A stretch of 32,000 nucleotides of DNA from Succinivibrio sp. (GTDB taxonomy: Bacteria; Pseudomonadota; Gammaproteobacteria; Enterobacterales; Succinivibrionaceae), in contig JAFUGP010000151.1 of NCBI GenBank assembly GCA_017469335.1, positions 1,422-33,421 on the forward strand, given 5' to 3'. Of this stretch, positions 4,727 to 23,840 are shown piece after piece (positions within the stretch are counted from its first letter, which is position 1; each line of letters starts with the position of its first letter). The translations under genes were made by a program, and so were the position numbers. The notes beneath the pieces are model-generated. The model did not search any database and was not told the DNA's origin. It worked only from the letters and a program-made list of their open reading frames with translations.

Positions 4727-5680
4727 TCATGACTGCGCCCCGGGACCGGCCGCCCGGCACAGCACTACGCCCGGCTCTTCCCTCAGGCGGGGGCCGTCCT
4801 CGGTCATCACGGGCTCGTATCTGGCCGTCGCCCGTCCCTGATTGGCCGAGTTCAGGGAATTAAGATACAGCACATACATGACGATCAGATCTCTTAGGCG
4901 GCGGTGGGCCTCGAACCTCTCATACATGGCCCGGCTCAGCTCTTCGCTAACCTCCCCGCTGAACTGCTTCCTGAACTGCTCTTTTAAACTCTCAATCTGC
5001 CGGTCATCTTCATCGAGCATGGCCTGCAAATCTTCGGCTTTGACGTTCAGCGTGATGAACTCGCTTAGCGCGGGATCGGCATCGTTCAGCGCCAGAAAGC
5101 TCAGGCGGAGCTGATCTCTGCCGCCGGTTTTGAAATCTTTACTGCCGTCGGTGACCGGAGCATCCACGTCAAGGCTGTTCAGGTGACCGTGATCCAACAT
5201 GACAAAACAGCCGTCGAAATGCTCGAGCACGCCCTGTTTACGGCTGCGCGGCAGCTCAATGTACATGGCCCAGTCCTGCAGTTTGGACAGCTCTAAAATC
5301 ACCGAACCGCGAACCTCAGACAGAGTAACCTTCTCCAACATGTCTGCCAATGATTCGTCGAGCCGATAGAACTTCTTGCCCACACTCCAAAGAACCACCG
5401 GCTTGAGCTGCGTGCGTTCTACTATCTGCTGTTGCAGGTTGGCGCACTCATCGTCATCTTCAGATTCGTTCATGACGGCCTCAAGCTTGTCGTTGCCCAG
5501 GGCCTCGTACCAGTCCTGCACTGTCAGGAAAACGGTCCCGTAGACCGGATTTCCCGATGCCAGTCCCCTGCTTCTGAGCTGCGCCATCCTCTCCATCACC
5601 CCGGGGATCTGTTTTACGGTAAGCTCGGCAAACTTCCTAACCAACTCCAGATTGCCGCTCTGATCATCGACTTTGGTCAT
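4727..5680 (-). CDS. Hypothetical acidic protein (317 aa)
   Basis: Long ORF with ATG at 5680, an upstream tggaga RBS and its own promoter-like element. No domain recognised. Confidence 0.7.
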   Translation of the reverse strand: MTKVDDQSGNLELVRKFAELTVKQIPGVMERMAQLRSRGLASGNPVYGTVFLTVQDWYEALGNDKLEAVMNESEDDDECANLQQQIVERTQLKPVVLWSVGKKFYRLDESLADMLEKVTLSEVRGSVILELSKLQDWAMYIELPRSRKQGVLEHFDGCFVMLDHGHLNSLDVDAPVTDGSKDFKTGGRDQLRLSFLALNDADPALSEFITLNVKAEDLQAMLDEDDRQIESLKEQFRKQFSGEVSEELSRAMYERFEAHRRLRDLIVMYVLYLNSLNSANQGRATARYEPVMTEDGPRLREEPGVVLCRAAGPGAQS

Positions 5681-6512: not shown

Positions 6513-7622
6513 TCAGCGCATACGTGCTGGTGCAGCTGCCAACTCGTCAAGAGCCCGGTTTAACCCGGTCATGATCACCGTCACTTCGATCTCGTCCTCA
6601 GCAAAATCCGGCATGAGTTTCATGCCGAACTTGCAGTCGGCATCTTCAGCGGCATAGGCATGCACGGCCGAACATACCTCCTCCCAGCGGTTGAGCGGGA
6701 AAGATGGACTGACCTTGACATTGACGATGAGACCGCTGGCCTTGCTGATATCTACCTTCTGCATGAGCGGGGAGAAGATGGCGTGTCTGACTGCTTCTTC
6801 CACCAGATTGGGACCTTTGCCATGACCTATGCCAATGACCGCACGGCCGCGGCCGCGCATCACCGTCTGCATATCCGCGAAATCGAGATTGATGAAGCCG
6901 CCCACCCCGACTATGGCACCGGCCACGCCGTTTACGGTGTTGATCACCGTCTCATCGACGGCCTCAAAGGCGCTGCGTACCGATACGCCCGGTCCCAAAC
7001 TCTTAAGCAGTTGGTTGTTGTCTACAACTATGAGGGTGTCGACCTGCCCCAGCAGATCCTCAACGCCGCGCTCGGCTATGAGCGTACGCCGGCGCCCTTC
7101 AAAATTAAAGGGCATGGTGGCTACACCGACCGTAAGGGCTCCGCTCTGCCGGGCCAATCCTGCGATGACCGGAGCCGCACCGGTACCGGTACCTCCGCCC
7201 ATGCCGGCGACCACGAAAATCAAATCAGTGCCGCGCACCAGCTCTTTGATCTCATCCAAGCATTCCTGCGCGGCCAGGCGACCCTGATTGGGATCGCAGC
7301 CCGAACCCAAGCCAGCGGTCAGATTTTTGCCTAACTGCACGCAGGTGGGGGCGCGACAGACCGAGAGAGCCGCAGCATCGGTATTGAGCGCCACCAAGGC
7401 AAGCTCGGTGAGCCTAAGTTCCGTGAGACGGTCGGCAAAGTGGCTCATCACGTTGCAGCCGCAGCCTCCCACACCTAACACCTTGATGACACAACGCGGA
7501 GAAGCGACAGGTGCCGGGGAGGTACTTTGGAGTGCTGCGGCAGACTGTTCTGCGCCAGGTGGGGTGGTGCCGGGACTGACCTGAGCTTGCAGGTCGGATA
7601 TTTGCTCGTCACGATCGCTCAT
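6513..7622 (-). CDS. ftsZ: FtsZ-family tubulin-like GTPase; stand-alone, without the C-terminal linker or conserved tail, probably a paralogue
   Basis: Diagnostic FtsZ motifs are present: IKVLGVGGCGCN, ALNTDAAAL, AGMGGGTGTGAAPVIA, PFNFEGRRR and the T7 loop NLDFAD. The preferred start is the ATG at 7622 (AGGA upstream); the longest ORF reaches 7664. The protein ends ...VIMTGLNRALDELAAAPARMR just after the globular domain. Confidence 0.9.
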   Translation of the reverse strand: MSDRDEQISDLQAQVSPGTTPPGAEQSAAALQSTSPAPVASPRCVIKVLGVGGCGCNVMSHFADRLTELRLTELALVALNTDAAALSVCRAPTCVQLGKNLTAGLGSGCDPNQGRLAAQECLDEIKELVRGTDLIFVVAGMGGGTGTGAAPVIAGLARQSGALTVGVATMPFNFEGRRRTLIAERGVEDLLGQVDTLIVVDNNQLLKSLGPGVSVRSAFEAVDETVINTVNGVAGAIVGVGGFINLDFADMQTVMRGRGRAVIGIGHGKGPNLVEEAVRHAIFSPLMQKVDISKASGLIVNVKVSPSFPLNRWEEVCSAVHAYAAEDADCKFGMKLMPDFAEDEIEVTVIMTGLNRALDELAAAPARMR

Positions 7623-8036
7623 AATGATTCCTATTCTTGTCAGGGAGAAGGTCCTTGCTGTCATTAGCCTGCAGCAGGTCCATCATCTTTTGACACGGCT
7701 AAACTTGCCCTCAGAAGAACCGCGTCTGCATGGTGCAAACCTAAGGCAGATTGCCGCGCCCGGAGGCAGTGCCGAAGGCAAATCAGCACAGCTCCGGACC
7801 TCGTGCCTCAAGTCTGATTGAGATTGTACAGGCAGCACCGGACAAAAAATCCCTTGCATCTCGCAAATACGCCACGGCCGGGAAAGTCGCCAGGCAGGCT
7901 TTGGGGCTGCCTGTCTCTTGCAAAGTGCCCCGCTCATGCCAAACGTGCACTTTGCCTGACAGCGCAAATTAAGTGCACTTATCTTCAAATCTCCCGGCAC
8001 TCTGTTTACACTTGTAGCTGTAGGGAGGCTTGGCAC

Positions 8037-8666
8037 ATGCAGACTGAGGATTATTTGCGCTTTCTCTGCCGGCAGATCCACACGGTGGTACTGGCAAGTT
8101 TGGATGAAAACCTGCTGCCGGTGACTGCAGCCGTTGATATCATGGAGGCACGCAAGGACAGCGTGTTGTTTCTGACCGCCACCGGCAAGGGTCTGTACCG
8201 CAGACTGTCTCAGCACCCTCAGGTGGCACTGACCGGTCTTAAAGGTGAGGACTCCTTGAGCACGGTGGCAATCTCGCTGCGCGGCAGGGTGCGGGAGCTG
8301 GGAGCTGACCTGATCCCGCATCTGTTCGAGCTCAATCCCTACATGGCTGAGATCTACCCCGGCGAAATCTCCCGCCAGGCTCTGACCGTCTTTGAACTCT
8401 ATGAGGGGAGCGGACAGTGGTTTGATCTCTCCAAAAAGCCCGTGGAACATCAGACGTTTGGTTTTGGCGGGATCACTGCCGTCACCTCGTGCCTCTACAC
8501 CATCACCTCCTTATGCGATGGCTGCGGCAAATGCCTGTCAGTCTGCCCGCAGCAGTGCATAGCAGGCAGCAGTCTGCCCTTTGTCATCAAGGCTCCGCAC
8601 TGTCTTAACTGCGGCAACTGTCTGAGTGTCTGCCCGAAAGGGGCGGTACAACGTCTTAGGGCGTAA
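8037..8666 (+). CDS. Pyridoxamine-5'-phosphate-oxidase-like (FMN-binding split-barrel) domain fused to a 2x[4Fe-4S] ferredoxin domain
   Basis: ATG at 8037 is preceded by GGGAGG; the ORF-track start at 7818 adds an implausible N-terminus. The N-terminal region looks like the PNPOx family (recall). The C-terminus carries two CxxCxxCxxxCP motifs, CDGCGKCLSVCP and CLNCGNCLSVCP. Confidence 0.85.
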   Translation: MQTEDYLRFLCRQIHTVVLASLDENLLPVTAAVDIMEARKDSVLFLTATGKGLYRRLSQHPQVALTGLKGEDSLSTVAISLRGRVRELGADLIPHLFELNPYMAEIYPGEISRQALTVFELYEGSGQWFDLSKKPVEHQTFGFGGITAVTSCLYTITSLCDGCGKCLSVCPQQCIAGSSLPFVIKAPHCLNCGNCLSVCPKGAVQRLRA

Positions 8667-8670
8667 AGTT

Positions 8671-9501
8671 ATGAGCGATGTCACCGCCCAGGATACCAAG
8701 GCCCTGAGTCAGGATGAACTGCTGTTGCGCCTCATCAGGCTGCTGTGCGCCGAAGATGAGCGCTATGCTGAGCTTGAGATCCCAACTTCCTTAGATGAGA
8801 GGCGCAACCTGCTGCGCGCCCTGCTCAATGTGCGCCCGCCGCGTCCTGCCGCCGCGCAGCTCATTCAATTGCAGGACAGCTACCTGCAGGAGCGCCTTAC
8901 AGAGCGCGGGGTGGTGGACGCGTTGCAACTGCCCTTACTGAGCCAGAGCATTGCCCTGTGGCAGGGTGATATCACCCGCCTTAGGGTCGGGGCCATCGTC
9001 AACGCCGCCAACGAACAGATGTTAGGCTGCTTCAGCCCGCTGCATAACTGCATCGACAACTGCATCCATACTTACGCGGGATTGCAGCTGCGCTTGGAGT
9101 GCTCGCGTCTTATGCAGAAGCTCAGAGCAAAGTTCGGATCGCAGTATGTCATGCCCACCGCCGCGCCGCTGCTGACGCCGGGCTACAATCTGCCGGCGTC
9201 CTGGATCATTCACATCACCGGCCCTATCGTCCTGGGAGCGCTCACCCCTCATTACGAGGCCCAGCTCATTGAGTGCTACCGCAACATTCTGTCGCTGTGC
9301 AGCGCACGGCGGATTTTGAGCGTCGCCATCTGCTGCATCTCCACCGGCGTGTTTCACTTCCCGCCGCAGCAGGCAGCGCAGCTGGCCGTTGCTACGGTGC
9401 AGCAGTATCTGCGCGAGCACCAGGAGATGCCCCTGAGAGTTATCTTCAACGTATTTTCCCATGAGGATTACCGCCGTTATGCCCAACTGCTTGAATCCTG
9501 A
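8671..9501 (+). CDS. Macrodomain protein (protein-ADP-ribose hydrolase type, sirtuin-linked)
   Basis: ATG at 8671 lies 4 nt after the upstream stop. The macrodomain core is IALWQGDITRLRVGAIVNAANEQMLGCF...HITGPIV, with an N-terminal helical extension as in the Staphylococcus/Streptococcus SirTM-associated macro proteins (recall). Confidence 0.88.
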   Translation: MSDVTAQDTKALSQDELLLRLIRLLCAEDERYAELEIPTSLDERRNLLRALLNVRPPRPAAAQLIQLQDSYLQERLTERGVVDALQLPLLSQSIALWQGDITRLRVGAIVNAANEQMLGCFSPLHNCIDNCIHTYAGLQLRLECSRLMQKLRAKFGSQYVMPTAAPLLTPGYNLPASWIIHITGPIVLGALTPHYEAQLIECYRNILSLCSARRILSVAICCISTGVFHFPPQQAAQLAVATVQQYLREHQEMPLRVIFNVFSHEDYRRYAQLLES

Positions 9502-10474
9502 GGACGGCTACCGCCTGAGCATACAGCTGGGTCTTAAGGCCCTGCACTCTTTAAGCGGGGAGCTGAGCTTTGCCGCCGCGCCTGCCGCAGACACCCTCCC
9601 CGCTCTCAAGACGGCACTGTCAGACTGCGAGGCCGTGGTGGTAGGTGCCGGTGCAGGACTGTCCACGGCGGCAGGATTTACCTACAGCGGGGCGCGCTTT
9701 GAGCGTTATTTCTCCGATTTCAAAGCCCGCTTTGGCATTGAGGATATATACTCAGGCGGCTTTTATCCATTCCCCAGAGCGGGGATACGCTGGGCCTGGT
9801 GGGCGCGGCATATCTACTTCAACCGCTATGTCACGGCCCCGCTGAAAGTCTACCCCACTCTTAGAGCCCTGCTTGAGGGCCGGGACTATTTTGTCATCAC
9901 CACCAATGTAGACCACCAGTTTCAGAAGTCAGGCTTTGCTAAAGAGCGGCTGTTCTACACCCAGGGAGACTATGGCCTCTTTCAGAGCGTAAACTCCTCC
10001 ATCAGGCAGACCTTTGACAATGAGGAGTGGACCATGCAGGCCATGGCCGCGCAGGGTTTTGTCAGTAACAGCCAAGGCGTTTTCGACCTGCCCGAGAACG
10101 CAGCGGTGAGCATGGAACTGCCTGAGGATATACTGCCGCGCTGCCCGCTGGACGGCAGCGAGGTGACCATGAACTTAAGGGCCGATGACAGTTTTGTGGA
10201 GGATGAGGGCTGGCAGCGGGCGTCGGCGGCCTACGCAAACTTCCTCACGGCGCATCGCCGCAGCCGGGTGCTGTATCTTGAGCTGGGTGTGGGCGCCAAT
10301 ACCCCGGTCATCATCAAATACCCTTTCTGGGCACTGACCCTGGCCAACCCCCGTGCCACCTACGCCTGCCTCAACCTCAAGGAGGCCTTTGCCCCGCAGG
10401 AGCTTGCCGCGCGCAGTATCTGTCTTGAAGGCGATGTGGCGCAAATCATCACACAGCTCACCGCATCCTCATGA
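9479..10474 (+). CDS. Class M sirtuin (SirTM-like, SIR2 family; predicted protein ADP-ribosyltransferase)
   Basis: The Rossmann NAD motif is VVVGAGAGLSTAAG and the sirtuin TTNVDHQF corresponds to TQNID. FYTQGDYG sits where deacylating sirtuins have HG. The gene overlaps the macro gene by 23 nt, or 41 nt if the start is at 9461. Confidence 0.85.
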   Translation: MPNCLNPEDGYRLSIQLGLKALHSLSGELSFAAAPAADTLPALKTALSDCEAVVVGAGAGLSTAAGFTYSGARFERYFSDFKARFGIEDIYSGGFYPFPRAGIRWAWWARHIYFNRYVTAPLKVYPTLRALLEGRDYFVITTNVDHQFQKSGFAKERLFYTQGDYGLFQSVNSSIRQTFDNEEWTMQAMAAQGFVSNSQGVFDLPENAAVSMELPEDILPRCPLDGSEVTMNLRADDSFVEDEGWQRASAAYANFLTAHRRSRVLYLELGVGANTPVIIKYPFWALTLANPRATYACLNLKEAFAPQELAARSICLEGDVAQIITQLTASS

Positions 10475-11272: not shown

Positions 11273-12430
11273 CTATGAGTGCGGCGCGCTCAAAAGTAAG
11301 GTGTGCAGCTGCCGCCTGGCCTCATCCTGTCCCTCACCTAAGCTCTGCAGCGCCTGCTCCCAGCTCTCACGCAGGCGGCTTTTGACCTCCACCAGCTCAC
11401 CTAGGAGCAGCCGGCGATAGTCATTGCGCCTGGCGAACATCCCGCCCAGCAGACCGCTTACGGATAAGGAGGAAGTGAGTGTGCGCAGATAATCCTGAAA
11501 GTCATTGCGCCAGCGCGGCATGGCACTCTCCTCGCTGAGATGGCCAATCCTCTGGGGATCAAAATCAAAACGCACCTGTGCGTAACCTAAGAGCACCTGC
11601 GAGCTGATGGCATTGATTTCGTCAAGTCTCCCCGTCACCGTCTGCAACAGCCGCGCTCCCAGACGCCCGAACTCCTCATTGATCCGGGCTACCAGACGCG
11701 CCTTGAGCTCATCGCCGTAGTGGGTGAAAATCCCCAGAGCACCGGTCTGGGCGTCATAGTAATCGAGGCAGGAGCGATAGGCTGCGGCAATGCCCGCCTC
11801 ACACTCCTGACGCGATAGATACTGCAACCTCAAGATGAGATTATCCCGCAGGTTCACTCCCATCAGACGCAGCAGTTCATCGCGCCCGAAGGTCTGTGTC
11901 TGCCGTCCCGAGCGCAGAGTCTCACTCACCGAGCCGGTCCTCAAGAGCTGCACCCCCTCCCCCAGCACCTCGCGCACGGTTTTTTCCAGCGCCTCCTGCT
12001 TTTCAGGCGCGGCTTTGTCACACTTGGTAAGCACGAAAATCATGCGGCAGCCCAGATGGGAAAATGGCGTGATGATTTTATCTTTCTCGTAGTCATCCAG
12101 GCGGCTGCGGGAGGCATCCAGACAGTAGATGAGCGAGTGAAACCAGTCGGCCACCGCCTGCTGTCCATTGCGCTGCATCTCATCGTGCAGCAGTCTCTCC
12201 CAGTCCAGCGCCTGCGCGCCCTCTTCCAGTCCCCAGCTGTCATAAGGGCAGATGAGCAGGTTGCGGTAGGCAAAAGGTTCTATAGGGTGCAGGCCGTAGG
12301 AGGTCACCGGTGCCCCGGCCCCGGAGCGCACCTTATCCTTAAGGCCGTAGAGATAGTTGATGAGCGAGGACTTGCCGGCTCCGGTCTTGCCCAGCACCAG
12401 CACATTGGTACGTATCAGTGCGCCGCTCAT
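11273..12430 (-). CDS. P-loop GTPase (TRAFAC, MMR_HSR1/YfjP-like) with a ~200-aa helical C-terminal domain
   Basis: G1 is VLGKTGAGKSSL, G2 is a candidate PVTS, G3 is DSWG and G4 is TKCD. The start is the ATG at 12430 or the GTG at 12442. It follows the upstream GTPase gene by 27-39 nt. Confidence 0.85.
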   Translation of the reverse strand: MSGALIRTNVLVLGKTGAGKSSLINYLYGLKDKVRSGAGAPVTSYGLHPIEPFAYRNLLICPYDSWGLEEGAQALDWERLLHDEMQRNGQQAVADWFHSLIYCLDASRSRLDDYEKDKIITPFSHLGCRMIFVLTKCDKAAPEKQEALEKTVREVLGEGVQLLRTGSVSETLRSGRQTQTFGRDELLRLMGVNLRDNLILRLQYLSRQECEAGIAAAYRSCLDYYDAQTGALGIFTHYGDELKARLVARINEEFGRLGARLLQTVTGRLDEINAISSQVLLGYAQVRFDFDPQRIGHLSEESAMPRWRNDFQDYLRTLTSSLSVSGLLGGMFARRNDYRRLLLGELVEVKSRLRESWEQALQSLGEGQDEARRQLHTLLLSAPHS

Positions 12431-12469
12431 GAGTGCCGTCACTCAAGCCAACCCGGCAGACCGCTACCC

Positions 12470-13657
12470 TCAGGACCGGTCCTGAGGATGACGGCCGGGT
12501 TTATCATCTTTTTGGTACTCCTCAAAGAGCTGTGCCACCATGGCCTTGAAGCGCTCGCCAAAGAGCTCGTTGATGGACTGGGTCTGCCCCTGCAGCCCGC
12601 GCAGGCACAGCTGCTCGCACACACGGTTGTAGGCCGCGCCCAGGGCGTAGGTCATGGCGCTAGCCACCGAGCCGTTGATGAGCCCGCCCGTGAGCGTGCC
12701 CAGCCCGGGGATGAGCTTGGCCAGATTGCCGGCTAAGGACTTGCCCACGTTCTGAGCAATGAGATTGACCAGCACCCCGCCGGCGAGCTCCTTTAGACTC
12801 TTGAGATCCCACACATAGGAGAGCCTGGCCAGCATGCTCAGCTGCGCGGAGGTCAGCAGTGCCGCGTCGGACATGGGAATGGGGGTAAAACCCACCAGGA
12901 AGGCCCCGGCCACCGTCTGTCTGACAATGCTCTCACCTTCCGTCAATTTACGTTCGATACCGCGACGCGAGGCAGCCATGAAGGACAGACGCCTGGACTC
13001 GTCGAGCATTTCCACTGTCCAGCTGTTTAACTGCTCCAGCCCGGGATTGAGCTGCAGGCGCTCATCGGTGCTGCTCTCGAAGATAAAGCAGCGCTCCTTA
13101 CCGTCGCCCTGAGGAGGCAGCGCGGCGTGGATGGCCTCGCCAAGTTCCTTGCAGCCGTTTTCGCTGGCCTCATCGACCTGGGTCAGAACAATGGCCACCG
13201 GCTTGTGCAACCGCTCGAACATCTCCACCAGGCTGGCATCAAGCGCCGTAAAACGCGCCACCGGGGCATTCACGCAGTACCAAACCACGTCGATGGGTTC
13301 ACCCTCATCCTCAAGTCTGGTGAGCAAGGTCTTGATGTCGGCGTTGAACCGACGCTGCTTGTCCTCGCCGGTCTCATAGCCGGGGGTGTCATAGAGCCTG
13401 AGATCCCCCACCTGCAACGGGGTCACGGCCGTGGTGACAGGTCTGCCGCCGCCCACCTCGGCCACCTCCCGTCCCAGCACCAGATTGCAGAGGGAGCTTT
13501 TGCCCGCCCCGGCCGCGCCTACCACCAGAATGCTGGCCTGCCCTATTTGGGCAACGTAATCCTGGTACAAAGTGCGGTAACGCTCGGCAATCTCCGCTTC
13601 ACTATCGGCTGCCGTCGACGCCTCAAGAACATCGGGGCTCTCCTTTGTGTCACTCAT
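12470..13657 (-). CDS. P-loop GTPase fused to a Gly-rich hydrophobic C-terminal module (DUF697-like)
   Basis: G1 is VGAAGAGKSSL, G2 is PVTT, G3 is DTPG and G4 is TQVD. The C-terminus reads FLVGFTPIPMSDAALL...LAGNLAKLIPGLGTLTGGLINGSVASAMTYALGAAYNRV. The DUF697 label is from recall. Confidence 0.85.
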   Translation of the reverse strand: MSDTKESPDVLEASTAADSEAEIAERYRTLYQDYVAQIGQASILVVGAAGAGKSSLCNLVLGREVAEVGGGRPVTTAVTPLQVGDLRLYDTPGYETGEDKQRRFNADIKTLLTRLEDEGEPIDVVWYCVNAPVARFTALDASLVEMFERLHKPVAIVLTQVDEASENGCKELGEAIHAALPPQGDGKERCFIFESSTDERLQLNPGLEQLNSWTVEMLDESRRLSFMAASRRGIERKLTEGESIVRQTVAGAFLVGFTPIPMSDAALLTSAQLSMLARLSYVWDLKSLKELAGGVLVNLIAQNVGKSLAGNLAKLIPGLGTLTGGLINGSVASAMTYALGAAYNRVCEQLCLRGLQGQTQSINELFGERFKAMVAQLFEEYQKDDKPGRHPQDRS

Positions 13658-13708
13658 AAAGACCTCGTTTTTTCATCAAAATCAGAAGATTTACCGCCTT
13701 TGCTGCGG

Positions 13709-14458
13709 TCAATTTGCACTTGGGTTCTCTGCTGTGGTGTGTTTTAGGCGCATAAAGGCTATCTGGACTACGCAGGGCAGAGTCACCCGGTAGGCAGGAC
13801 CTGCCAGATCATAGGCCGTCCACAACCCCGTCAGCGCCCAGCCCAGGGGACCGGCAAAGACCCCTAAGGCCCGCGACAAAGCGGCATTGCCGGCTAAGGT
13901 TAACCCCGAGCCCAACAGCATTCTGGACAAGGTATTGGCCACCAGGGACGCCGCCTGCAGCGCCAAGGCGCTGTTGAGCCTTACGCCCAACTGCAAAGCT
14001 GCGGTTACCGCCTGCGCTGTGACGGCGCAGTTTTGGAGGTTCAATGAGGAGATGAGCTCTTTTAGATCCTGCTCATCCATTTTCTCCACCGCCGCGATCA
14101 AAAGGCTCTCGAGCAGCCGCCGCTCCAGCACCGGTACACTCTCGTCATCTTCATGTTTGACCTTGGCCTTATCCAGCACGTCGCGGACTATTTCAGCATA
14201 CAGCACCCCGCCGCCGCGCCACAGGTTCATCAGGGAATGTCCGCCGAAACACTGCAGTTCCTCGGCCAGACGCTGCCAGTAGCGGCTGTGCTCACCAGGG
14301 CAGTTTTTATACTCATCACTGGAGGTAAGGGTCTGGGTGAGACGTTCACGGCGCTCCTCCCCGGAGCCGTCATAGACCAGATAGCCAAACAAAGGCTCCA
14401 GCTCAGCGTCACTTAGGGTGCCCAGAAAGGCCAGATCAGGATCCTCGCGATAGCTCAT
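13709..14458 (-). CDS. yaaW: YaaW-like protein (UPF0174 / DUF3944 family)
   Basis: EDPDLAFL...SRYWQRLAEELQCFGGHSLMNLWRGGGVLYAEIVRDVLDKAKVK...AGPAYRVTLPCVVQIAFMRL parallels my recollection of E. coli YaaW (RRNWQLIAGELQHFGGDSIANKLRGHGKLYRAILLDV...AYRVTIPAVLQIACLRR). Confidence 0.8.
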   Translation of the reverse strand: MSYREDPDLAFLGTLSDAELEPLFGYLVYDGSGEERRERLTQTLTSSDEYKNCPGEHSRYWQRLAEELQCFGGHSLMNLWRGGGVLYAEIVRDVLDKAKVKHEDDESVPVLERRLLESLLIAAVEKMDEQDLKELISSLNLQNCAVTAQAVTAALQLGVRLNSALALQAASLVANTLSRMLLGSGLTLAGNAALSRALGVFAGPLGWALTGLWTAYDLAGPAYRVTLPCVVQIAFMRLKHTTAENPSAN

Positions 14459-14501: not shown

Positions 14502-15572
14502 CTACTTGTCTGTTTCATAAGGCGTTAATGTAAGCTCGCCCTGCTCAACCCTGGCGACCAGAAACGGCACCAGCACCTTGCGCAGTGAGTTGAATTTATA
14601 GGGCAGCTGCACCTGCGCAGGTTTTAGATCGGGGTTTTTAAGATACTGCCTGACTATACTCATGGCCACCTGTGCGATTGTGCGGGCATCGCGGGTGACC
14701 GTGGCCTCCAGCTCGCCGGCGCGCACCGCAGCGAGCCCCTCGGCAATGCCATCAATGCTCAGTACCGGAATATAGGGACGATCGGGCCCCAGGTTAAAGC
14801 CGCGCTGCTGCAGTTCGCGCACGGCCGCCAGAGCGATGCGATCACTGGCGCAGATCACCGCGTCCAGATCCTCAATGGCCGTGTGCTGCAGCAAAGTCTC
14901 GAACTGCTCTTTGACCAACGCTCCGCTCCAGGGGCCAAAATACTCACCTAAGATCTGAGTGGGGATCTTAAGCCGCCGCAATTCCTGCCTGAAGGTCTTG
15001 GCTCTGCTTATGGTCTCCAAGTTGCCCTGTATGCCCTTGAAGAGCACATAGTCAACCTTACCGTTGCCGTTGCGATCCCAGTTGGGATGGATCTGTTGGT
15101 ACTCGTGCAACAGCTGAGCCTGAATTTTACCGGGCAAGAGCAAATCACTGCCCACGTACCAGGTAGTACTGTATTTGGTAAAGACATCAGTGCCTGGATC
15201 ATCGGCCACAAACAACAAAGGCAGTCTGGCGCGCTCGGCGTGGTGCGCCACGGTCTCGTCCTCGGCATGGTCCCACACCAACATGAGCATGGGCATGGTC
15301 AGCTCGGTGCTCTCACCAAACAGTCCCCACACATCCTGAGCCTTACCCTGTCCACAGCCTTCCTTGAGTTTGACCGAGTGCTCATATGACTGCAGAATCA
15401 GCTGTTCGCGGATGGAGGCATTGACCGGGCTGCGGCAGTCTTCCATGTAGAAGAGGACCTGCGACTGGGGCTCATTACCCTCGGCCAGAGCCGCCGGGAC
15501 AAACGAGTTCAGAACACAACCTGTCAGTAACACCAAATATTGTCTGAGTGTTCGAAGGCAGAGCAGAGACAT
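14502..15572 (-). CDS. Periplasmic sugar-binding protein, MglB-like (PBP type I), with no adjacent ABC permease or ATPase
   Basis: ATG at 15572 is preceded by GAGGAGG (GTG at 15578 in the ORF track). The signal peptide ends ...VPAALAEG. YVGSDLLLPGKIQAQLL...WDRNGNGKVDYVLFKG...VICASDRIALAAVRELQ...VLSIDGIAEGLAAVRAGELEATV parallels E. coli MglB, including its Ca-loop region (DLNKDGQIQFVLLKG). Confidence 0.85.
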   Translation of the reverse strand: MSLLCLRTLRQYLVLLTGCVLNSFVPAALAEGNEPQSQVLFYMEDCRSPVNASIREQLILQSYEHSVKLKEGCGQGKAQDVWGLFGESTELTMPMLMLVWDHAEDETVAHHAERARLPLLFVADDPGTDVFTKYSTTWYVGSDLLLPGKIQAQLLHEYQQIHPNWDRNGNGKVDYVLFKGIQGNLETISRAKTFRQELRRLKIPTQILGEYFGPWSGALVKEQFETLLQHTAIEDLDAVICASDRIALAAVRELQQRGFNLGPDRPYIPVLSIDGIAEGLAAVRAGELEATVTRDARTIAQVAMSIVRQYLKNPDLKPAQVQLPYKFNSLRKVLVPFLVARVEQGELTLTPYETDK

Positions 15573-15925
15573 GGGCACCTCCTCTGTTGTAGTTCCTATC
15601 AGAACCTACGGCGCGGCGCTCCCGCACACCGGCACTTAGCTCAGTATAACCCAAGGTTTTGTGTTAAGACTGCGCCTCGGCTCAAAGGGTTGGGAGTCCA
15701 CAGGCAAATTGCAGAGCTGACTATGCGATGGAAAGCCTGAAGAACTGCCATATGAATGAGGGACCTGTACGAAGAAAGCTGCCCACCTGATCGGCTCCGC
15801 CTAAATCTTTGCCGCTGACGTGCATCAGAGCCTCAACGCAGGCTACTCTTCGGTGACCGAGATTAGTCAAATGAAAGCACAGGAAACTGGATTGACACCT
15901 GCCTGTGCAGGGCAATTTCTGTATC

Positions 15926-17482
15926 TTATCGACATAGACTGTTCATAATGGCGGTGATTTTGGCATTGATCTTAGCTGCATCCTTGAGTTCGTAATACTT
16001 CAGAATTTCTTGAATATCACCGTCTTCTAACTCTTTTAAATTAGGGATCTTCAATTTACGCAGATGCTGACTCTGCCAGCGCACAAATCCGCCGTTCATC
16101 TGATTGGTTACGGCCGCCAACTGTTCCCTGACAAAATCCGACATGAGAAAAGCTGCCAGGATCTTGAGATCTGTGGGGGAGTTACCGACCACATAGTAGA
16201 TGTTATGCAAAGGATAATACTCGCCTTCGTCGACAAAAATGTAGGTGTTACCCGATATATCCGGCAGCAGGATTTTTGGCTGAGAGCGCAGTTGCGGATT
16301 TATTCTGTCTATGGTTTTATACCATCTGTCAGGCGCTTTTTGGGCAACGTGTCTTGAGGATAACCGTTCACGGTAAGCGGATAAATAAGCCTCTGCCTTG
16401 GGATAAGCCGCGAGGTCCAGCAACGAGCCATCCGGGTTGTAGGGGTTCAGCAGGAATTCACCCTGCCACTTGAGTTCGTTGCCGCGCAGATCCCTAGCAT
16501 TTATACCCGGCAAAATAAGTGATGGCTCAACTAGCTGAGGGAGTTGAGGTGAAATAAACACCGAATCAGCGCCCGTGGCAACTCCTACCCCGATTTTAAA
16601 TCCTTGACTCTCTATGGTGCTGAGGCAAGGATCTGCTTCCCGGACATTAAACATCGCAGACCAATCGGCATCTTCAGGCACCTTCTTGCTTATTGCCTTC
16701 AGCTCTGCCAGACTCTCTGCCTCTGCGCAGTCCGAGTAGACAAAAGTCTCCCGGCAGCGATCGGCGTCTATCACGGTGATGGCAGGATAAGCTAGAACAT
16801 CCGACAAAAAAGCCTTGGCACGCTCTAAATTTATGAGACTTCTTAGTTGATAATGTTGGGCAACTAATTTCCGCAGTTTCCGTCCATATTCATTTCTGAG
16901 CCATCTGTTTGAGCAGATAAAGCAGTGCCGTCCACCCGGGGCCAGCATGGAGAGAGATTTTTCAAAGAACGGGACATACAAATCACAGCGGTAGTGAAAA
17001 GTCTCGAAGTTGTCCCGGCAAAATTTAAGGATATCCTTTGGAATATGCTCGTAGCGGATATAAGGGGGATTACCGACCACAATGTCCACCATGCTCTGTG
17101 GGGCGTGCAGAAAATCCTCAACCACAATGGTATCGGCCGCAGTGTCTATACCCAAACTCTGCAATCTTTCTTGGCACAGTCTGACTTTGAGGGGATCTAT
17201 CTCATAGGCCCGAACATTAATGTTGAAGACAGTCTCTGCATCAAAATCAAAGCGCCTTGCTGACTCCTGCAATCTGTTGGCTATTTCCACCAGAAATTCA
17301 CCGTCACCGCAGGAGGGCTCCAGCACACGGACCGCACTTAAGTTGCGATCGGAGGTATAGCCGGCCTTATCAAGCATGAACCGTACCACGGCCGGGGAAG
17401 TAAAAACATCGCAGTGCCCCCGGGAGCGCCTGTGGCCCGGCAATTTAACTGCGCTTACGGGCGGCACTGCTAAGGTATCCAT
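15926..17482 (-). CDS. Type II N6-adenine DNA methyltransferase (gamma class, Eco57I/TaqI-like with a C-terminal target-recognition domain)
   Basis: Motif X is DVFTSPAVVRFML, motif I is VLEPSCGDGEFL and motif IV is VVGNPPYIRY. The gene overlaps the endonuclease gene by 38 nt. Local GC is clearly lower than in the flanks. Confidence 0.92.
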   Translation of the reverse strand: MDTLAVPPVSAVKLPGHRRSRGHCDVFTSPAVVRFMLDKAGYTSDRNLSAVRVLEPSCGDGEFLVEIANRLQESARRFDFDAETVFNINVRAYEIDPLKVRLCQERLQSLGIDTAADTIVVEDFLHAPQSMVDIVVGNPPYIRYEHIPKDILKFCRDNFETFHYRCDLYVPFFEKSLSMLAPGGRHCFICSNRWLRNEYGRKLRKLVAQHYQLRSLINLERAKAFLSDVLAYPAITVIDADRCRETFVYSDCAEAESLAELKAISKKVPEDADWSAMFNVREADPCLSTIESQGFKIGVGVATGADSVFISPQLPQLVEPSLILPGINARDLRGNELKWQGEFLLNPYNPDGSLLDLAAYPKAEAYLSAYRERLSSRHVAQKAPDRWYKTIDRINPQLRSQPKILLPDISGNTYIFVDEGEYYPLHNIYYVVGNSPTDLKILAAFLMSDFVREQLAAVTNQMNGGFVRWQSQHLRKLKIPNLKELEDGDIQEILKYYELKDAAKINAKITAIMNSLCR

Positions 17483-18161
17483 AAAGAGAGGCCAGAAAAC
17501 TGCTTATGGAAGTTTCCTCTCCCAGATCTCCATAAGATCGATCAGCACGAGTCCACAGCACACTCGCGCAGTTGTAGTGACGTTCTCTTACCAGCTTTTG
17601 ACAGAGAATTTGGTAGCGCTGAAGATAGGTTGCTCCGACAAATTCAGCTAGAACAGGGAAGTGAGGCTCGTGATTGCTCACAGGGCGCTCTGAATCGTCA
17701 TCACGTCCTACCACCATCAGCCAGCCTAACCAGGGGGCAAGCTGCTCCGGAAACAAACCTTCGCGAAAAGCCGTCCATAAATCAACAGCCGAGCCCAACG
17801 CCTCCTCAGCACGATTGTTGAAATTGTTCCCGTAGGAGCCAATCTGGGATTTGAGCTCAATGGTTGCAAGCAGTCTGCCTCCACCATCAATGATAATCAT
17901 GTCCCACTCTTTGGATGAGCGAAAATACCCGGGCAGATAATTGTTGTCGGTTATGACTTGCGCTGGAGCAACACCCGCTTCAACTGCCACTGTTTTGAGA
18001 AGACTGACAAAGCCATTGAGCTGTTTGCCACCCAGAACTGCACCTCGGTTTGTCAGATCGATGCTGTCCTCACGCTGACTTTCCCGCCTATCCCAGAACG
18101 CCGTTACAGCCTGTGATATTTGTGCTGCAAAACCAGTGCCTGATTTGGGTGCGTATGCCAT
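17445..18161 (-). CDS. Type II restriction endonuclease (PD-(D/E)XK); possibly XhoI/PaeR7I family
   Basis: The PD-(D/E)XK-like core is DMIIIDGGGRLLATIELKSQ. IGSYGNNFNNRAEEALGSAVDLWTAFREG matches my recollection of the XhoI-family signature. The gene is operonic with, and overlaps, the m6A methyltransferase gene. Confidence 0.75.
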   Translation of the reverse strand: MAYAPKSGTGFAAQISQAVTAFWDRRESQREDSIDLTNRGAVLGGKQLNGFVSLLKTVAVEAGVAPAQVITDNNYLPGYFRSSKEWDMIIIDGGGRLLATIELKSQIGSYGNNFNNRAEEALGSAVDLWTAFREGLFPEQLAPWLGWLMVVGRDDDSERPVSNHEPHFPVLAEFVGATYLQRYQILCQKLVRERHYNCASVLWTRADRSYGDLGEETSISSFLASLYGYLSSAARKRS

Positions 18162-18411
18162 ACCTGATTACCTCGCCAAAACTTTATGGCTACGGACCTC
18201 GTTTCTGCGCAAACACTTCGCACAAACTGCCTGCCAAAAGCTCCCGTATGATTATCGCACACCTGCCCGTACCAAATTGTGCTCTTGTGTACCTCAGTAC
18301 AATCGTTTTTGAGGCAGGAATCTGCCTGTAATACAGACACACCCCAGATTCCTTCTGTCAGTTGAGTTATGCTGTGCCGGTAGCATGCAAAATTCACAAG
18401 CGGAGAGCAAC

Positions 18412-19683
18412 ATGCGCCCCGACATAAAAGCTTTTCTCGAACAATTACATTACGAACTTCCAAAAATGGGACTGGCCCCACAGGTGCACAGCTATGTGCT
18501 GCTGTATCTGGCCTGGCAGTGCGCCCTTAAAATCTCCGGTCCTAATTTCTCACTTAAAAAGCTCGGTGCGCTGGTAAGCACCCTCAAAAAACCCGCCACC
18601 TCACGGTACCTGACATCGCAAGCAAACCAGCGCGGCAGCGCACTTGCCATCCTGCTCAAAGGGCTGGATCAGTGCTCTCCTTGTATAGATCGCCCGGAGA
18701 GTTACGGCGAACTGTGGGATCTGTTCTACCGCGTCCCCGGCACCCATATGCAGCCTGACGATCAGGCCGTGCTGGAGTATCTGGCCTTGCAGATTGAAGA
18801 ACATGACGCCCCGTTCTTCAAAGAAGCCCTGACCTCTTTGAGTCCTGAATTCATCAGCACTCTGCCCAGGCCTCCTGCAAGCGCGCAATTTAGTCTCGCT
18901 ACCGAAGACTACACCCGGCAGATCTGGTGTAGTTTGGCCGCCAGGTTTCTCAAATTACAACAAGGCATGCAGATCTACAATCCCTGCTGCGGCACCGGCA
19001 ATTTTGCTCTGGCCGCAGCCGCGGTCTGCCCACAGGCGCACACCGTCAGCGTGGACTGTGACGAGCTGATGACCAATATCTGCGCCATGCGCGCCCAAGC
19101 AGCCGGCATTGAAACACAAACTTACTGCGCTGACATGTTCTCGACACTGTCAAAAGGTCAGATTGTGCGCTATGAGCGTGTGTTCTGCATGCCGCCCACG
19201 CAACTGCCTCTTCATACCTACGACAATTACCTCAGATCGATAGGACTGCAGCCCAGCACTCGCCATGTCATCGCAGAAGATGCCTATTTATTGCAGATCT
19301 TAGCCTCCCTGAAAAGTTCAGGGCGCGCCGTGGTCATTTTAGACTTGAGCTCCTGCGGGGATGAGATTTTTTGCGCCCTCATTGCACAGGGATTACTGGA
19401 GGCCGTGATCCCGCTTCCGTGCTTTACGGGCGATGCCCGCCCTGTCTGCGACATGCTGGTAATAAGCCGCGGCAATCGCAGCGTGCGCACTTACAGTCTT
19501 GAACAGGCGCTGAGACTGCCTTTGTACACTGTACCTAATCCGCAAGATTACGAGACCTTAGCTGCTCTCAGTGACCGACAGTTACGCTATGGCTCCTCAC
19601 GTATGACTAATCAACAATTGCTCAGATCAGACAACCTAGATCAAGAACTGTGTCAGACGACCAACGGCAGCCCTGCCGAATAA
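18412..19683 (+). CDS. HsdM-like N6-DNA-methylase homologue with a degenerate catalytic motif; orphan, with no HsdS or HsdR
   Basis: ATG at 18412 is preceded by GGAGAG (the ORF track starts at 18385). Motif I is IYNPCCGTGNFAL (18979-19005). The motif IV position reads VFCMPPTQL (CMPPT at 19186-19200) instead of (N/D)PP(Y/F/W). The HsdM-like C-terminal part is GRAVVILDL...LLEAVIPLP. Confidence 0.8.
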   Translation: MRPDIKAFLEQLHYELPKMGLAPQVHSYVLLYLAWQCALKISGPNFSLKKLGALVSTLKKPATSRYLTSQANQRGSALAILLKGLDQCSPCIDRPESYGELWDLFYRVPGTHMQPDDQAVLEYLALQIEEHDAPFFKEALTSLSPEFISTLPRPPASAQFSLATEDYTRQIWCSLAARFLKLQQGMQIYNPCCGTGNFALAAAAVCPQAHTVSVDCDELMTNICAMRAQAAGIETQTYCADMFSTLSKGQIVRYERVFCMPPTQLPLHTYDNYLRSIGLQPSTRHVIAEDAYLLQILASLKSSGRAVVILDLSSCGDEIFCALIAQGLLEAVIPLPCFTGDARPVCDMLVISRGNRSVRTYSLEQALRLPLYTVPNPQDYETLAALSDRQLRYGSSRMTNQQLLRSDNLDQELCQTTNGSPAE

Positions 19684-21808: not shown

Positions 21809-23686
21809 CTACTGCTCGGTATAGCTGGAAAGCACAAAATCATCGTTGATGTTCACTTCCTGATCGGGATCGCCGACCTCACCCGGCGTACCCTGCTCAC
21901 CCATTTCTGCCTGCTTGTGCAACAGCGGCATGGCTCTTGCCATCAGCTCATTGGCCTTGGTGGTGTTCTTGCGCACCAAATGTCCGGTTTTGTAGTACTG
22001 ACTGAGCGTGGTCAACGAGAGCACATCGTTGTGCTCACAGCCCTGCTTTAAGGTCTTGATGGCCATTTCATTATTGAGATCGGTACCGATGCCGCATTCA
22101 TAGCATACGGCCAGCGCCTGGAACACCATACTGTCATACTTCTCAGGATCATAATCGCGCACGGCCTTTGACAGCACCAAAAAGGCGTCGGAAAAAGCCA
22201 GGGGGATCAGATCGTCATCACGCCCCAAAATCTTGGAGGCAGCCTTGACCACCAGTTCGCTGAGCAGAAAGTAAGTGCTCATCTCGGCATCGCGCACCAC
22301 TAATATACCGTGCGCATACAGATCAACCAGCACGTGTATCGCCCTGATCACGCCGTTTTCGGCAGAGTCCTTCAGATAACTCAGGCCATCATAGATGCGC
22401 TGCTGAATTTCCGCATAGCGCTCGTCGTTGTAAATATATTTCTTTTTGGGATCAATTTTATAGGGGCGGTTCTGGATGACGCTCTCCTCGGTCTGCCCGG
22501 GATACTTTTTGATAAGCTCCTGCAGATCGCTGCGCGCCTGTCCCAGCAGCATCAATCCCACCATACACTGTGCCTCGGCGCTGCCCAATTCGGCTGCCGT
22601 CTTCATAAATTGAGCGCTTTTTTCGAGATCCTGATGCTTGGACTTGGGCGAGCCATAGATGTGGGCCAGAACAAAGGCCGCGGAGGGCTCATCATATTCA
22701 ACGGCTTCCTCCAGCAGCTTTAGGCCCTTATCCTCATCGCGGATCTCATCTTTGGTGCAGTAGAGCGTCCCCAGTTTGGCGAGCGCCGTCGGTTGCTGTT
22801 TACGTACCGCCCGCTTGAGGAGAGCCTCGGCTTTTTTGACGTCCCGGGGCACGAAAGCACCGTGCAAATAACAGTCTGCCAGTCGGGAGACTGCCAGAGG
22901 ATGAAGATTGCGGGCGGCGCGTTTGAGCAGTTTGATGCCCAGCTGATGATCCTGGTGGGAGACTTCGTCACTGAGGATCATCTGCGCGGCCTGTACCGCA
23001 CACATATCAGAGCCCTGCTCGGCACCGTAAAGAAAGATTTTCAGGGCCTTGAGCACATCCTGCGGGACCAGATGTCCTTGACGATAGCATTCACCCAGAG
23101 CAGTGAGCGCCAGGCCGTAGTCGCGATCGGCCGCGGCCCTGAGCCAGTCCAGGGCCAGATCGTTATGCTCGCCGTCATCGTCAATGGCGTAGTCATAATC
23201 AAGGATGGCATAGTGCAGTACCAGCATGGAGGAGGGGTCGCCCTTTTGGGCTTCAGGAAGTACTTCCTGCACCAGGTATTCGCGCTGCATCTGCTGCTCT
23301 AAGAATTCATCATCCTCATCGTCTTCAGAGGCGGTATCCTGATCATCGTCAACTAGGGTAAGTGACTCATCGGAGCTCTGCTTGGCGCGAAACTCGGCTT
23401 CCAGCTCCTCAAAAAAGGAGGGATCAAGACGCGGCATCAACGGGGTTTCATCGGTACCCACATAATCGTCTTCCTCCAGGTTGATCTCATCATCCTTACC
23501 GCCTAAGAGTGCGACCTTATCCTCCAGATTTTTGAGCATACTATCCTGCTCGGCAGACTTATCTTGCGCAGGTTCATCAAGCCAGGACAGCTTGCTTGAA
23601 GTGTTGCGAAAAGGCTTCACCGCCTGTTCGAGCAGATCGAAAAAAACCTCATCATCCTGAATGTCGAGTGCGGAGTTATCTTTCAT
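21809..23686 (-). CDS. Sel1-repeat protein with a highly acidic N-terminal region (625 aa)
   Basis: ATG at 23686 is preferred over TTG at 23743. Sel1-type repeats include ALDWLRAAADRDYGLALTALGECYRQG, IKLLKRAARNLHPLAVSRLADCYLHG and AAELGSAEAQCMVGLML. The N-terminal 150 aa is Asp/Glu-rich. Confidence 0.85.
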   Translation of the reverse strand: MKDNSALDIQDDEVFFDLLEQAVKPFRNTSSKLSWLDEPAQDKSAEQDSMLKNLEDKVALLGGKDDEINLEEDDYVGTDETPLMPRLDPSFFEELEAEFRAKQSSDESLTLVDDDQDTASEDDEDDEFLEQQMQREYLVQEVLPEAQKGDPSSMLVLHYAILDYDYAIDDDGEHNDLALDWLRAAADRDYGLALTALGECYRQGHLVPQDVLKALKIFLYGAEQGSDMCAVQAAQMILSDEVSHQDHQLGIKLLKRAARNLHPLAVSRLADCYLHGAFVPRDVKKAEALLKRAVRKQQPTALAKLGTLYCTKDEIRDEDKGLKLLEEAVEYDEPSAAFVLAHIYGSPKSKHQDLEKSAQFMKTAAELGSAEAQCMVGLMLLGQARSDLQELIKKYPGQTEESVIQNRPYKIDPKKKYIYNDERYAEIQQRIYDGLSYLKDSAENGVIRAIHVLVDLYAHGILVVRDAEMSTYFLLSELVVKAASKILGRDDDLIPLAFSDAFLVLSKAVRDYDPEKYDSMVFQALAVCYECGIGTDLNNEMAIKTLKQGCEHNDVLSLTTLSQYYKTGHLVRKNTTKANELMARAMPLLHKQAEMGEQGTPGEVGDPDQEVNINDDFVLSSYTEQ

Positions 23687-23840
23687 GGCAGGGACCTTGA
23701 AGCGTAAAGTGAAAAGTAAGAGCGCTGGGCTGACCTGCGACAATTATAACGCAACCGTCGGCCAGCCCCGGCCGTACAGCACACGCTTGCAAAAACCTGT
23801 GCCTCATCAGCGCCGGGTGATGATACTGCCGGCGAACTGA

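Follow-up and report, generated by a model that had tools for sequence, protein, structure and literature searches.

The 32,000-nucleotide stretch of Succinivibrio sp. DNA analysed here (contig JAFUGP010000151.1; hereafter the window) contains a block of three closely spaced genes, termed A, B and C, that we read, with slightly better than even confidence, as a Juk-type defence system: the sensor JukA, encoded by gene A, would be coupled to an effector made of the two GTPases B and C, which would take the place of the pore-former JukB. Gene A already belongs to a named system, Juk. The novelty lies in the paired-GTPase effector, which matches no PADLOC model and for which no description was found in the literature on DUF697, on MMR_HSR1 proteins in phage defence and on YaaW-GTPase combinations. 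What follows about function is inferred from sequences, structure predictions and gene neighbourhoods.

The block had been singled out in an initial annotation of this DNA as a possible machine for membrane remodelling, stress response or defence; of these, defence is now the best reading. The tight same-strand spacing described there stands. All three genes, and the features within them, lie on the minus strand: gene A (13709..14458; 249 aa, ATG start) encodes the JukA (YaaW/UPF0174/DUF3944) sensor homologue, gene B (12470..13657; 395 aa, ATG start) a GTPase with a C-terminal DUF697 module, and gene C (11273..12442; 389 aa, GTG start) a GTPase paralogous to B with a predicted C-terminal three-helix stalk. 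The A-B spacer (13658..13708) measures 51 nucleotides (nt) and holds a GAGG ribosome-binding site 5-6 nt 5′ of the B start. The B-C spacer (12443..12469) measures 27 nt, or 39 nt if C begins at the alternative ATG at 12430, the start also chosen for its 98%-identical orthologue P0097 (385 aa). Both A and B are 100% identical to NCBI proteins of a Succinivibrio sp. metagenome-assembled genome (MAG), and E. coli genomes contain no similar sequence at the DNA level.

Gene A is a full-length homologue of JukA

Gene A encodes a full-length JukA homologue. The PADLOC JukA model PDLC04111 matches with E=5.3e-67, aligning residues 3-245 of A with model positions 6-243 of 250, and a second JukA model, PDLC04113, matches with E=1.3e-64. 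Pfam DUF3944 covers residues 3-36 (E=3.8e-10), and the NCBIfam model PRK10236 matches with E=1e-28, under the model's cut-off. Among 183 relatives of A, several are labelled "YaaW (UPF0174 family)" by their sources. A also carries the conserved JukA C-terminal motif GPAYRVTLPCVVQIAFMRL (13745..13801), in which residues G220-P221-A222-Y223-R224-V225-T226 (GPAYRVT) do not vary in 12 JukA relatives. The hydropathy maximum of A (KD19) is 1.27, with no transmembrane-level segment.

The initial annotation had likened this gene to E. coli YaaW, and the likeness is borne out by the DUF3944, PRK10236 and JukA matches and by the YaaW-named relatives. Its statement that UPF0174/YaaW proteins have no demonstrated function is outdated, YaaW being JukA, the sensor of Juk. 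Because gene A is JukA, the trio matches a named system in part; B and C match no PADLOC system model.

JukA (YaaW) is the sensor of the anti-jumbo-phage system Juk, for "jumbo phage killer" (bioRxiv 10.1101/2022.09.17.508391; PMC13282480; PMC13434031). It localises to the phiKZ infection site and there brings in the effector JukB (bioRxiv 10.1101/2022.09.17.508391). According to two 2026 reviews, JukA senses the early phage protein gp241 of phiKZ at the membrane-bound early phage infection vesicle, in which JukB forms tetrameric pores (PMC13282480, PMC13434031). Such relocalisation and binding of an early phage protein are documented for the Pseudomonas JukA and a few further homologues. The same reviews place JukA in ~21% and JukB in ~1% of proteobacterial and cyanobacterial genomes; because of this disparity JukA is believed to pair with many different effectors. 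Operon partners already recorded are JukB, RfaL, PD-(D/E)XK and HNH nucleases, Xre regulators, DUF2541 and EcsC-like proteins, and JukA is known in fusion to a Ras-like GTPase or to a patatin (bioRxiv 10.1101/2022.09.17.508391). Fusions of YaaW to MMR_HSR1 were recorded in Shewanella and Campylobacter coli in 2008 (PMC2268670). The locus described here supplies a concrete candidate partner, a conserved GTPase pair with membrane-type features.

Genes B and C encode paralogous GTPases with unrelated C-terminal halves

Motifs and profiles identify B and C as paralogues among the TRAFAC GTPases, septin/GIMAP/Era-like in kind and with complete motif sets. The G domain of B (residues 38-217; 13007..13546) contains the P-loop GAAGAGKSS (residues 47-55; 13493-13519), the G3 motif DTPGYE (90-95; 13373-13390) and the G4 motif TQVD (159-162; 13172-13183). 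That of C (residues 10-185; 11888..12415) contains the P-loop GKTGAGKSS (18-26; 12365-12391), G3 DSWGLE (68-73; 12224-12241) and G4 TKCD (139-142; 12017-12028). It also includes the C family signature DWFHSLIYCLDA (12113-12148), the source of the DNA search pattern used below. Across 25 relatives of B and 18 of C, the P-loop, the switch-I threonine and the G3 residues show no variation. The G4 threonine is invariant in the C relatives (T139) and nearly so in the B relatives (T159), closer subsets of which show no variation. The two complete motif sets reported initially are present where they were placed. The Pfam family MMR_HSR1 matches B above its cut-off (E=6e-11) and C below it (E=1.1e-3).

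Profile-profile alignment of the two families (hhalign) joins residues 5-220 of C to 25-237 of B with a probability of 99.9% and E=3.7e-34. The aligned region spans the G domain and the first helix that follows it, and includes unusual features common to both proteins: G-R-P-V-T, W/I-Y-C-V and DxxGxE. Nothing aligns past that helix, which agrees with the earlier view that the C-terminal halves are unrelated: that of B is a DUF697 module and that of C three helices. In B, the helical region (residues 220-384; 12506..13000) carries Pfam DUF697 (PF05128) at residues 242-364, scoring 34.7 bits against a cut-off of 27.7 (E=1.8e-8), and includes the Gly-rich loop LIPGLGTLTGG (12683-12715). DUF697 is the family of the membrane protein YcjF. 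In C, the helical domain (11288..11884; helices 187-233, 244-288 and 335-385) matches no Pfam family, DUF697 included, and its conservation is limited to full-length C relatives.

AlphaFold models computed from the family alignments are confident and in keeping with this division. The B model (pLDDT 83.6, pTM 0.83) opens with a predicted N-terminal helix at residues 13-37, and its helical DUF697 region, which follows the G domain, spans 220-384; the Gly-rich loop, residues 316-326, is modelled with low confidence, and the conserved residues K314, P317, G318 and G320 lie in or near it. In the C model (pLDDT 81.9, pTM 0.83) the G domain at 10-185 is followed by three predicted helices of 45-51 residues. 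Hydropathy maxima in a 19-residue window reach 1.58 in B, at the P-loop strand, and 1.16 in C, both below transmembrane level, and the DUF697 region of B is moderately hydrophobic, again under that level. The hydropathy of A, B and C fits soluble proteins able to bind membranes conditionally, as reported for JukA.

The top fold matches of both models in the Protein Data Bank (PDB) are immunity-related GTPases (IRGs), namely GM4951, Irga6, Irgb6 and Irgb10; EHD2, IniA, BDLP, GIMAP7, Toc34 and septins rank lower. The IRG matches extend over ~400 alignment columns with E=3e-9 to 1e-6, at identities of 12-18% and TM-scores of 0.28-0.32 for C and 0.38-0.45 for B. By sequence profile, the solved structures nearest to the G domain of B are septins (E=3.5e-15), and those nearest to that of C are Der (E=3.6e-11) and the septin Cdc10 (E=3e-8).

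A housekeeping role for B and C in ribosome assembly, as GTPases of the Era, Der, EngB or YlqF type, is effectively refuted and can be given almost no weight. Such a role would account for the Pfam label of their G domain (MMR_HSR1, "50S ribosome-binding GTPase") and for Der being the best solved-structure match of the C profile. Against it, the NCBIfam models for YsxC, Era, YlqF, Der, EngB, HydF and MnmE score 15-33 bits with B and C, their equivalog cut-offs being 100-950 bits; the best scores are 33.1 bits for B (YsxC, cut-off 124) and 25.9 bits for C. At the C-terminus the two proteins have the DUF697 region and the predicted helical stalk in place of a KH domain or any other domain that binds RNA, and both genes are accessory, patchy in distribution and plasmid-borne. 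The profile check called for by the initial annotation thereby separates the pair from the housekeeping families.

Two other identities proposed for parts of these proteins were rejected. The Gly/Ala-rich C-terminus of JukA does not resemble the DUF697 C-terminus of B (BLASTP E=1.3; hhalign probability 0.9%), and neither B nor C is JukB, since neither has a PADLOC JukB match at E<=0.01. In P0253, a protein of 572 aa whose G domain is C-like, residues 393-481 give a faint PADLOC JukB match (E=0.0087), which hints that GTPase and JukB-like parts may occasionally be combined.

The B-C pair is a conserved and mobile unit

The neighbourhood sample is small and consists chiefly of short metagenome contigs. 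Within it, the conserved unit is the B-then-C pair, found across many lineages and on a plasmid. Word-index searching returned 96 relatives of B. An exhaustive phmmer search with C returned 1215 cluster representatives at E<=1e-3 and 51 at E<=1e-30, ~30 of the latter full-length; the nearest C relatives are from Succinivibrionaceae (Succinimonas, Ruminobacter and related MAGs). The DNA pattern for the C signature, D-W-F-H-x-x-x-Y-C-x-D, identified 18 metagenome loci, all but one of which encode a C relative. In 14 of these 17 independently retrieved loci the gene directly upstream of C, in the same orientation, encodes a B relative that includes the DUF697 part, a recurrence beyond chance, and the pair occurs additionally at loci L001, L014, L019 and L052. 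The gap between B and C, measured at 15 loci, is <=27 nt in nine of them and has extremes of -8 and 243 nt. The identity between any two B proteins tracks that between the corresponding C proteins (r=0.91; Mantel test, 0 of 5000 permutations reaching this value), which shows that the two genes are inherited as a unit and alone is no proof of physical interaction. The original picture of a linked, membrane-type paired-GTPase module is therefore upheld for B and C. For the trio as a whole, the predicted synteny holds for the B-C pair and fails for JukA, which adjoins the pair in 2 of ~17 lineages with readable flanks.

Variants of the unit occur. Succinimonas has C on its own, as does one Succinivibrionaceae MAG, where C directly follows a type I restriction-modification (R-M) operon. 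In Treponema and one other lineage, B is accompanied by a C-like GTPase and a third GTPase. A Synergistales locus (L004; 1-4154 and 10188-11300) has two B-like genes and a third GTPase in tandem between a dynamin-family gene pair and a Lipase_3 gene. A regulator with a WCX domain is encoded nearby, and the locus may be a larger membrane-targeting defence cluster.

More distant B-like genes are solitary and lie in mobile or R-M contexts. The gene for the Lachnospiraceae B-like protein P0075, found on 129 contigs (at 8001-9152 in L008, L009 and L010), is surrounded variously by a type I R-M system with a PLD-helicase, by a NERD protein with a methylase, or by serine recombinases with IS110, as if it were a small cassette that moves from site to site. 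In the Acinetobacter johnsonii plasmid pXBB1-4 (L042, NZ_CP010355.1, 7579 bp) the B-C pair stands beside sul2, its C copy being 233 aa long, and this pair has been copied into a Klebsiella NDM plasmid. Enterobacteriaceae plasmids of Col type, 5 kb in size, carry single B-like genes, placed 3 nt downstream of the replication-initiator gene (L044, NZ_CP040890.1, 5065 bp). At L052, the nearest B relative with a readable contig, B-C adjoins a type I R-M unit; the open reading frame (ORF) that ends just upstream encodes a hydrophobic helix and is not JukA. Genes for R-M, Abi, WYL/WCX or JukA proteins or mobile elements lie <=8 kb from B or C in 10 of 14 distinct annotated contexts, a count made without a control set.

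All-against-all clustering of flanking ORFs at 20 loci revealed no third conserved partner of B-C other than JukA in the window and in L001, and the ORFs that adjoin the pair match unrelated Pfam families. Some flanks contain envelope genes (TamB, LprI, UDP-galactopyranose mutase). As for phage-borne copies, a search of IMG/VR with the C motif gave no match, and B has one partial match among GenBank phages.

Other proteins fuse a C-matching G domain (E=1e-25 to 3e-29) to an N-terminal domain, TIR in P0240, P0248 and P0252 and SIR2 in P0172. These four could be single-protein, GTPase-regulated NADase defence candidates. TIR and SIR2 are typical immune effector domains, which suggests a defence flavour for C-like GTPases.

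These data bear on a reading in which the block is a non-immune module for membrane remodelling or envelope stress, akin to YcjX/YcjF or to dynamin-like repair by DynA or IniA, with YaaW as an adaptor. We consider it improbable. It would account for the DUF697 (YcjF-family) region of B, for IniA, BDLP and EHD2 among the fold matches, for the envelope genes that flank some B-C pairs and for the GC content of the trio, which equals that of the host. It accords poorly with a patchy distribution across phyla with variable flanks, with occurrences on small plasmids and in mobile contexts, with relatives fused to TIR and SIR2, and with a partner, JukA, whose anti-phage function has been demonstrated.

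Linkage between JukA and the B-C pair

JukA adjoins B-C in the window, in the order A-B-C, and in one other locus, L001 of a Deltaproteobacteria MAG, in the order B-C-JukA-JukA. In L001 both copies of JukA have diverged (PADLOC E=9e-24 and 1e-21). A hidden Markov model (HMM) built from 114 JukA sequences and run over all loci and GTPase-family proteins recovered these two loci and a single protein, P0200. Over 215 aa this protein aligns with C at 33% identity (E=4e-35); it belongs to the C family of GTPases, bears the family signature and continues into a JukA module at residues 388-517 (114-sequence HMM E=9e-19; PADLOC JukA E=3e-8) with the C-terminal motif. The same GPAYRVT-type motif is found in both L001 JukA genes. 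Recurrence in two phyla with rearranged gene order, together with one fusion, is a classical signature of functional linkage and argues for such a link between JukA and B-C.

Several observations weigh against a joint system. The combination is rare from both sides. From that of the GTPases, JukA stands beside B-C in the two lineages given above, plus the fusion protein; P0200 itself derives from short contigs, is truncated at its N-terminus and has a JukA part that lacks the Gly-rich region. From that of JukA, none of seven JukA loci from IMG/VR has a B or C GTPase nearby. A survey of 329 Juk loci does not include the GTPase pair among recurrent operon partners (bioRxiv 10.1101/2022.09.17.508391), so the window could hold two separate modules side by side. 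The text of that preprint and its accessible supplements likewise contain no mention of a separate GTPase gene pair. Hydropathy predicts no transmembrane helix in A, B or C, so membrane binding is suggested solely by family resemblance, and the IRG fold matches have low TM-scores that the G domain alone could explain. Scans for promoters and terminators gave nothing exceeding shuffled expectation and no site between A, B and C, and so do not delimit a transcript. Finally, Succinivibrio is not known to be infected by any jumbo phage.

The principal alternative, which we regard as unlikely while still the strongest competitor, is that two independent modules have become neighbours through defence-island clustering, JukA acting as a stand-alone sensor or defence protein and B-C as a separate two-GTPase conflict module. 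Most B-C pairs lack JukA, the seven IMG/VR loci lack the GTPases, and JukA homologues of Vibrio, Escherichia and Janthinobacterium were each sufficient for immunity alone (bioRxiv 10.1101/2022.09.17.508391). Neighbourhoods of jukA are, moreover, frequently R-M-rich (bioRxiv 10.1101/2022.09.17.508391), and here an R-M unit lies 1.5 kb off. What this explanation does not readily provide is the repetition of the adjacency in a different phylum, with another gene order and a divergent JukA. Nor does it provide for P0200, which joins a C-type GTPase to a JukA module, or for the YaaW-GTPase fusions in the literature. The observation that the B-C effector exists widely on its own, without JukA, holds under either reading; if B-C proves unrelated to JukA, it is still a widely spread and uncharacterised two-gene module.

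Proposed mechanism

If the block is a JukA-GTPase system, each step of its action can be framed by analogy with Juk and with GTPases of the septin, GIMAP, IRG and dynamin type. On infection by a nucleus-forming jumbo phage, JukA would recognise a phage protein, either injected or early, at the membrane-bound early-infection vesicle, and would next recruit B and C. GTP binding would drive pairing of B and C through their G domains, as in septins, GIMAPs, IRGs and dynamins. The Gly-rich DUF697 module of B may then touch the vesicle membrane, and the long helical stalk of C may drive oligomerisation or higher-order assembly. The resulting assembly would deform or rupture the vesicle and lay the phage DNA open to host nucleases, for example the neighbouring XhoI-type enzyme. 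Where B-C occurs without JukA, it presumably responds to another trigger or is self-sensing.

A bolder form of this proposal, to which we assign a low probability, is that B and C are bacterial counterparts of mammalian IRGs, through functional analogy or descent, and that their GTP-driven heteromer ruptures the vesicle marked by JukA. IRGs and GBPs rupture the parasitophorous vacuole, and this attack on the membrane around an intracellular parasite is the job proposed for B-C. Irga6/IIGP1, Irgb6, Irgb10 and GM4951 are the top fold matches of B and C, which resemble them in size (~390-400 aa) and, going by the models, perhaps in a layout of an N-terminal helix, a G domain and a C-terminal helical domain. 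The differences are the low identities and TM-scores given above, the G domains being nearer to septins and Der by sequence, and the lack of a match to Pfam IIGP at E<=0.01 for B and C of the window; three distant B relatives have a precomputed match to this family (PF05049). Homology to IRGs past the G domain is not established. Under this IRG-counterpart reading, the same GTPase chassis would elsewhere be joined to TIR or SIR2 killing domains, and B-C would be a widespread, undescribed anti-phage effector family.

Were the JukA-GTPase system to be confirmed, it would add a nucleotide-driven attack on the phage's protective compartment, a new GTPase-based defence gene family located on plasmids and beside R-M systems, and a bacterial parallel to the vacuole-attacking immune GTPases of animals.

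Comparison with known systems

The nearest described system is that of JukA-JukB in Pseudomonas aeruginosa PA14. The window shares with it a full-length JukA homologue (gene A), a sensor gene followed by same-strand partner genes with an R-M unit nearby, as is frequent near jukA, and a membrane compartment as the likely target. The window differs from canonical Juk in that no JukB lies by A. B and C have no PADLOC JukB match, and the other neighbours in the window, a binding protein, a methyltransferase and an R-M unit, are not JukB either. Two ~390-aa paralogous GTPases are not among the partners listed or tested in the Juk preprint. Because the partner here is such a pair, its action would be nucleotide-driven, unlike that of a passive tetrameric pore.

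Paired or duplicated membrane GTPases also characterise Eleos (LeoA/LeoBC), BDLP, DynA and IniA; Eleos is anti-phage, and BDLP and IniA are weak fold matches of the models. The initial annotation had drawn this parallel with dynamin-like modules. Taken as membership it fails, and assignment of B and C to Eleos or to the dynamins was rejected, the P-loop region alone matching. PADLOC LeoA/LeoBC matches (E=2.7e-6 to 3.5e-3) cover ~65-85 residues at the P-loop (36-109 and 20-102 in B, 13-77 in C) out of profiles of ~560-600 positions. Unlike dynamin-like proteins, B and C are about half the length, and their models are without a dynamin-type neck, trunk or paddle.

E. coli YcjX/YcjF resembles B in joining a P-loop NTPase with a DUF697 module. 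The difference is that the two are fused in one polypeptide in B, which moreover has a septin/Era-like G domain, no transmembrane-level hydropathy and a second GTPase as obligate neighbour.

The DO-GTPase ("double GTPase") conflict systems consist of two paralogous TRAFAC GTPases in mobile, variable neighbourhoods and are predicted to form a membrane-near dimer (PMC7159879). They need GAP1 plus GASH or FNIII partners (Kaur, Burroughs, Iyer, Aravind 2020, PMC7159879). B and C share with them the conserved glutamate next to Walker B/G3 (DxxGxE), and differ in having no GAP1, GASH or FNIII partner in the flanks of 20 loci and no N-terminal zinc ribbons. No DO-GTPase family, for which Pfam holds models, was matched in the Pfam scan at E<=0.01.

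Other genes in the window

An MglB-like periplasmic binding protein is encoded 43 nt upstream of A (14502..15578, minus strand; Pfam Peripla_BP_4 E=2.3e-19). It is an orphan sugar-binding protein with a signal-peptide-like N-terminus and no ABC transporter genes nearby. No such gene stands beside B-C or JukA at any of the other loci compared, and it is probably not part of the system.

Beyond it lies a type II R-M unit (15926..18161, minus strand) that comprises an XhoI-like restriction enzyme and an Eco57I/TaqI-type methylase, their genes overlapping by 38 nt (Pfam XhoI E=6.5e-65, Eco57I E=3.3e-24; PADLOC REase_II E=3e-73, MTase_II E=1e-137). A divergent N6-adenine methylase gene (18385-19683, plus strand) adjoins this unit. 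The initial annotation had noted the adjacent unit as low in GC, and this is correct (0.48-0.51); the trio itself is not compositionally foreign, its GC content of 0.58-0.62 being the local value.

On the other side of the trio, just downstream and on the opposite strand, is a SirTM/macrodomain ADP-ribosylation pair. The macro-domain protein-ADP-ribose hydrolase (8626-9501, plus strand; PRK04143, 286.8 bits against a cut-off of 272) and the SirTM-type SIR2 protein (9461-10474, plus strand; PDB 5a3a, E=5.6e-47) overlap by 41 nt. Further along, an FtsZ-family gene (6513-7664, minus strand; TIGR00065, 316.8 bits against a cut-off of 295.2) stands outside any cell-division cluster and may be an FtsZ paralogue; its neighbours at 7683-8450 and 4727-5680, both on the minus strand, have no match in Pfam, NCBIfam or PADLOC. 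GTPase-centred conflict systems with tubulin-like components have been described (Kaur et al. 2020, PMC7159879).

Large Sel1-repeat proteins are encoded twice in the window, at 777-3122 and 21809-23743 (both minus strand). In loci of Succinimonas and Ruminobacter (L015, 13649-15652; L019, 13683-15485) such proteins are likewise encoded at a distance of a few kb from the C homologue, a recurrence that may simply reflect lineage-specific expansion.

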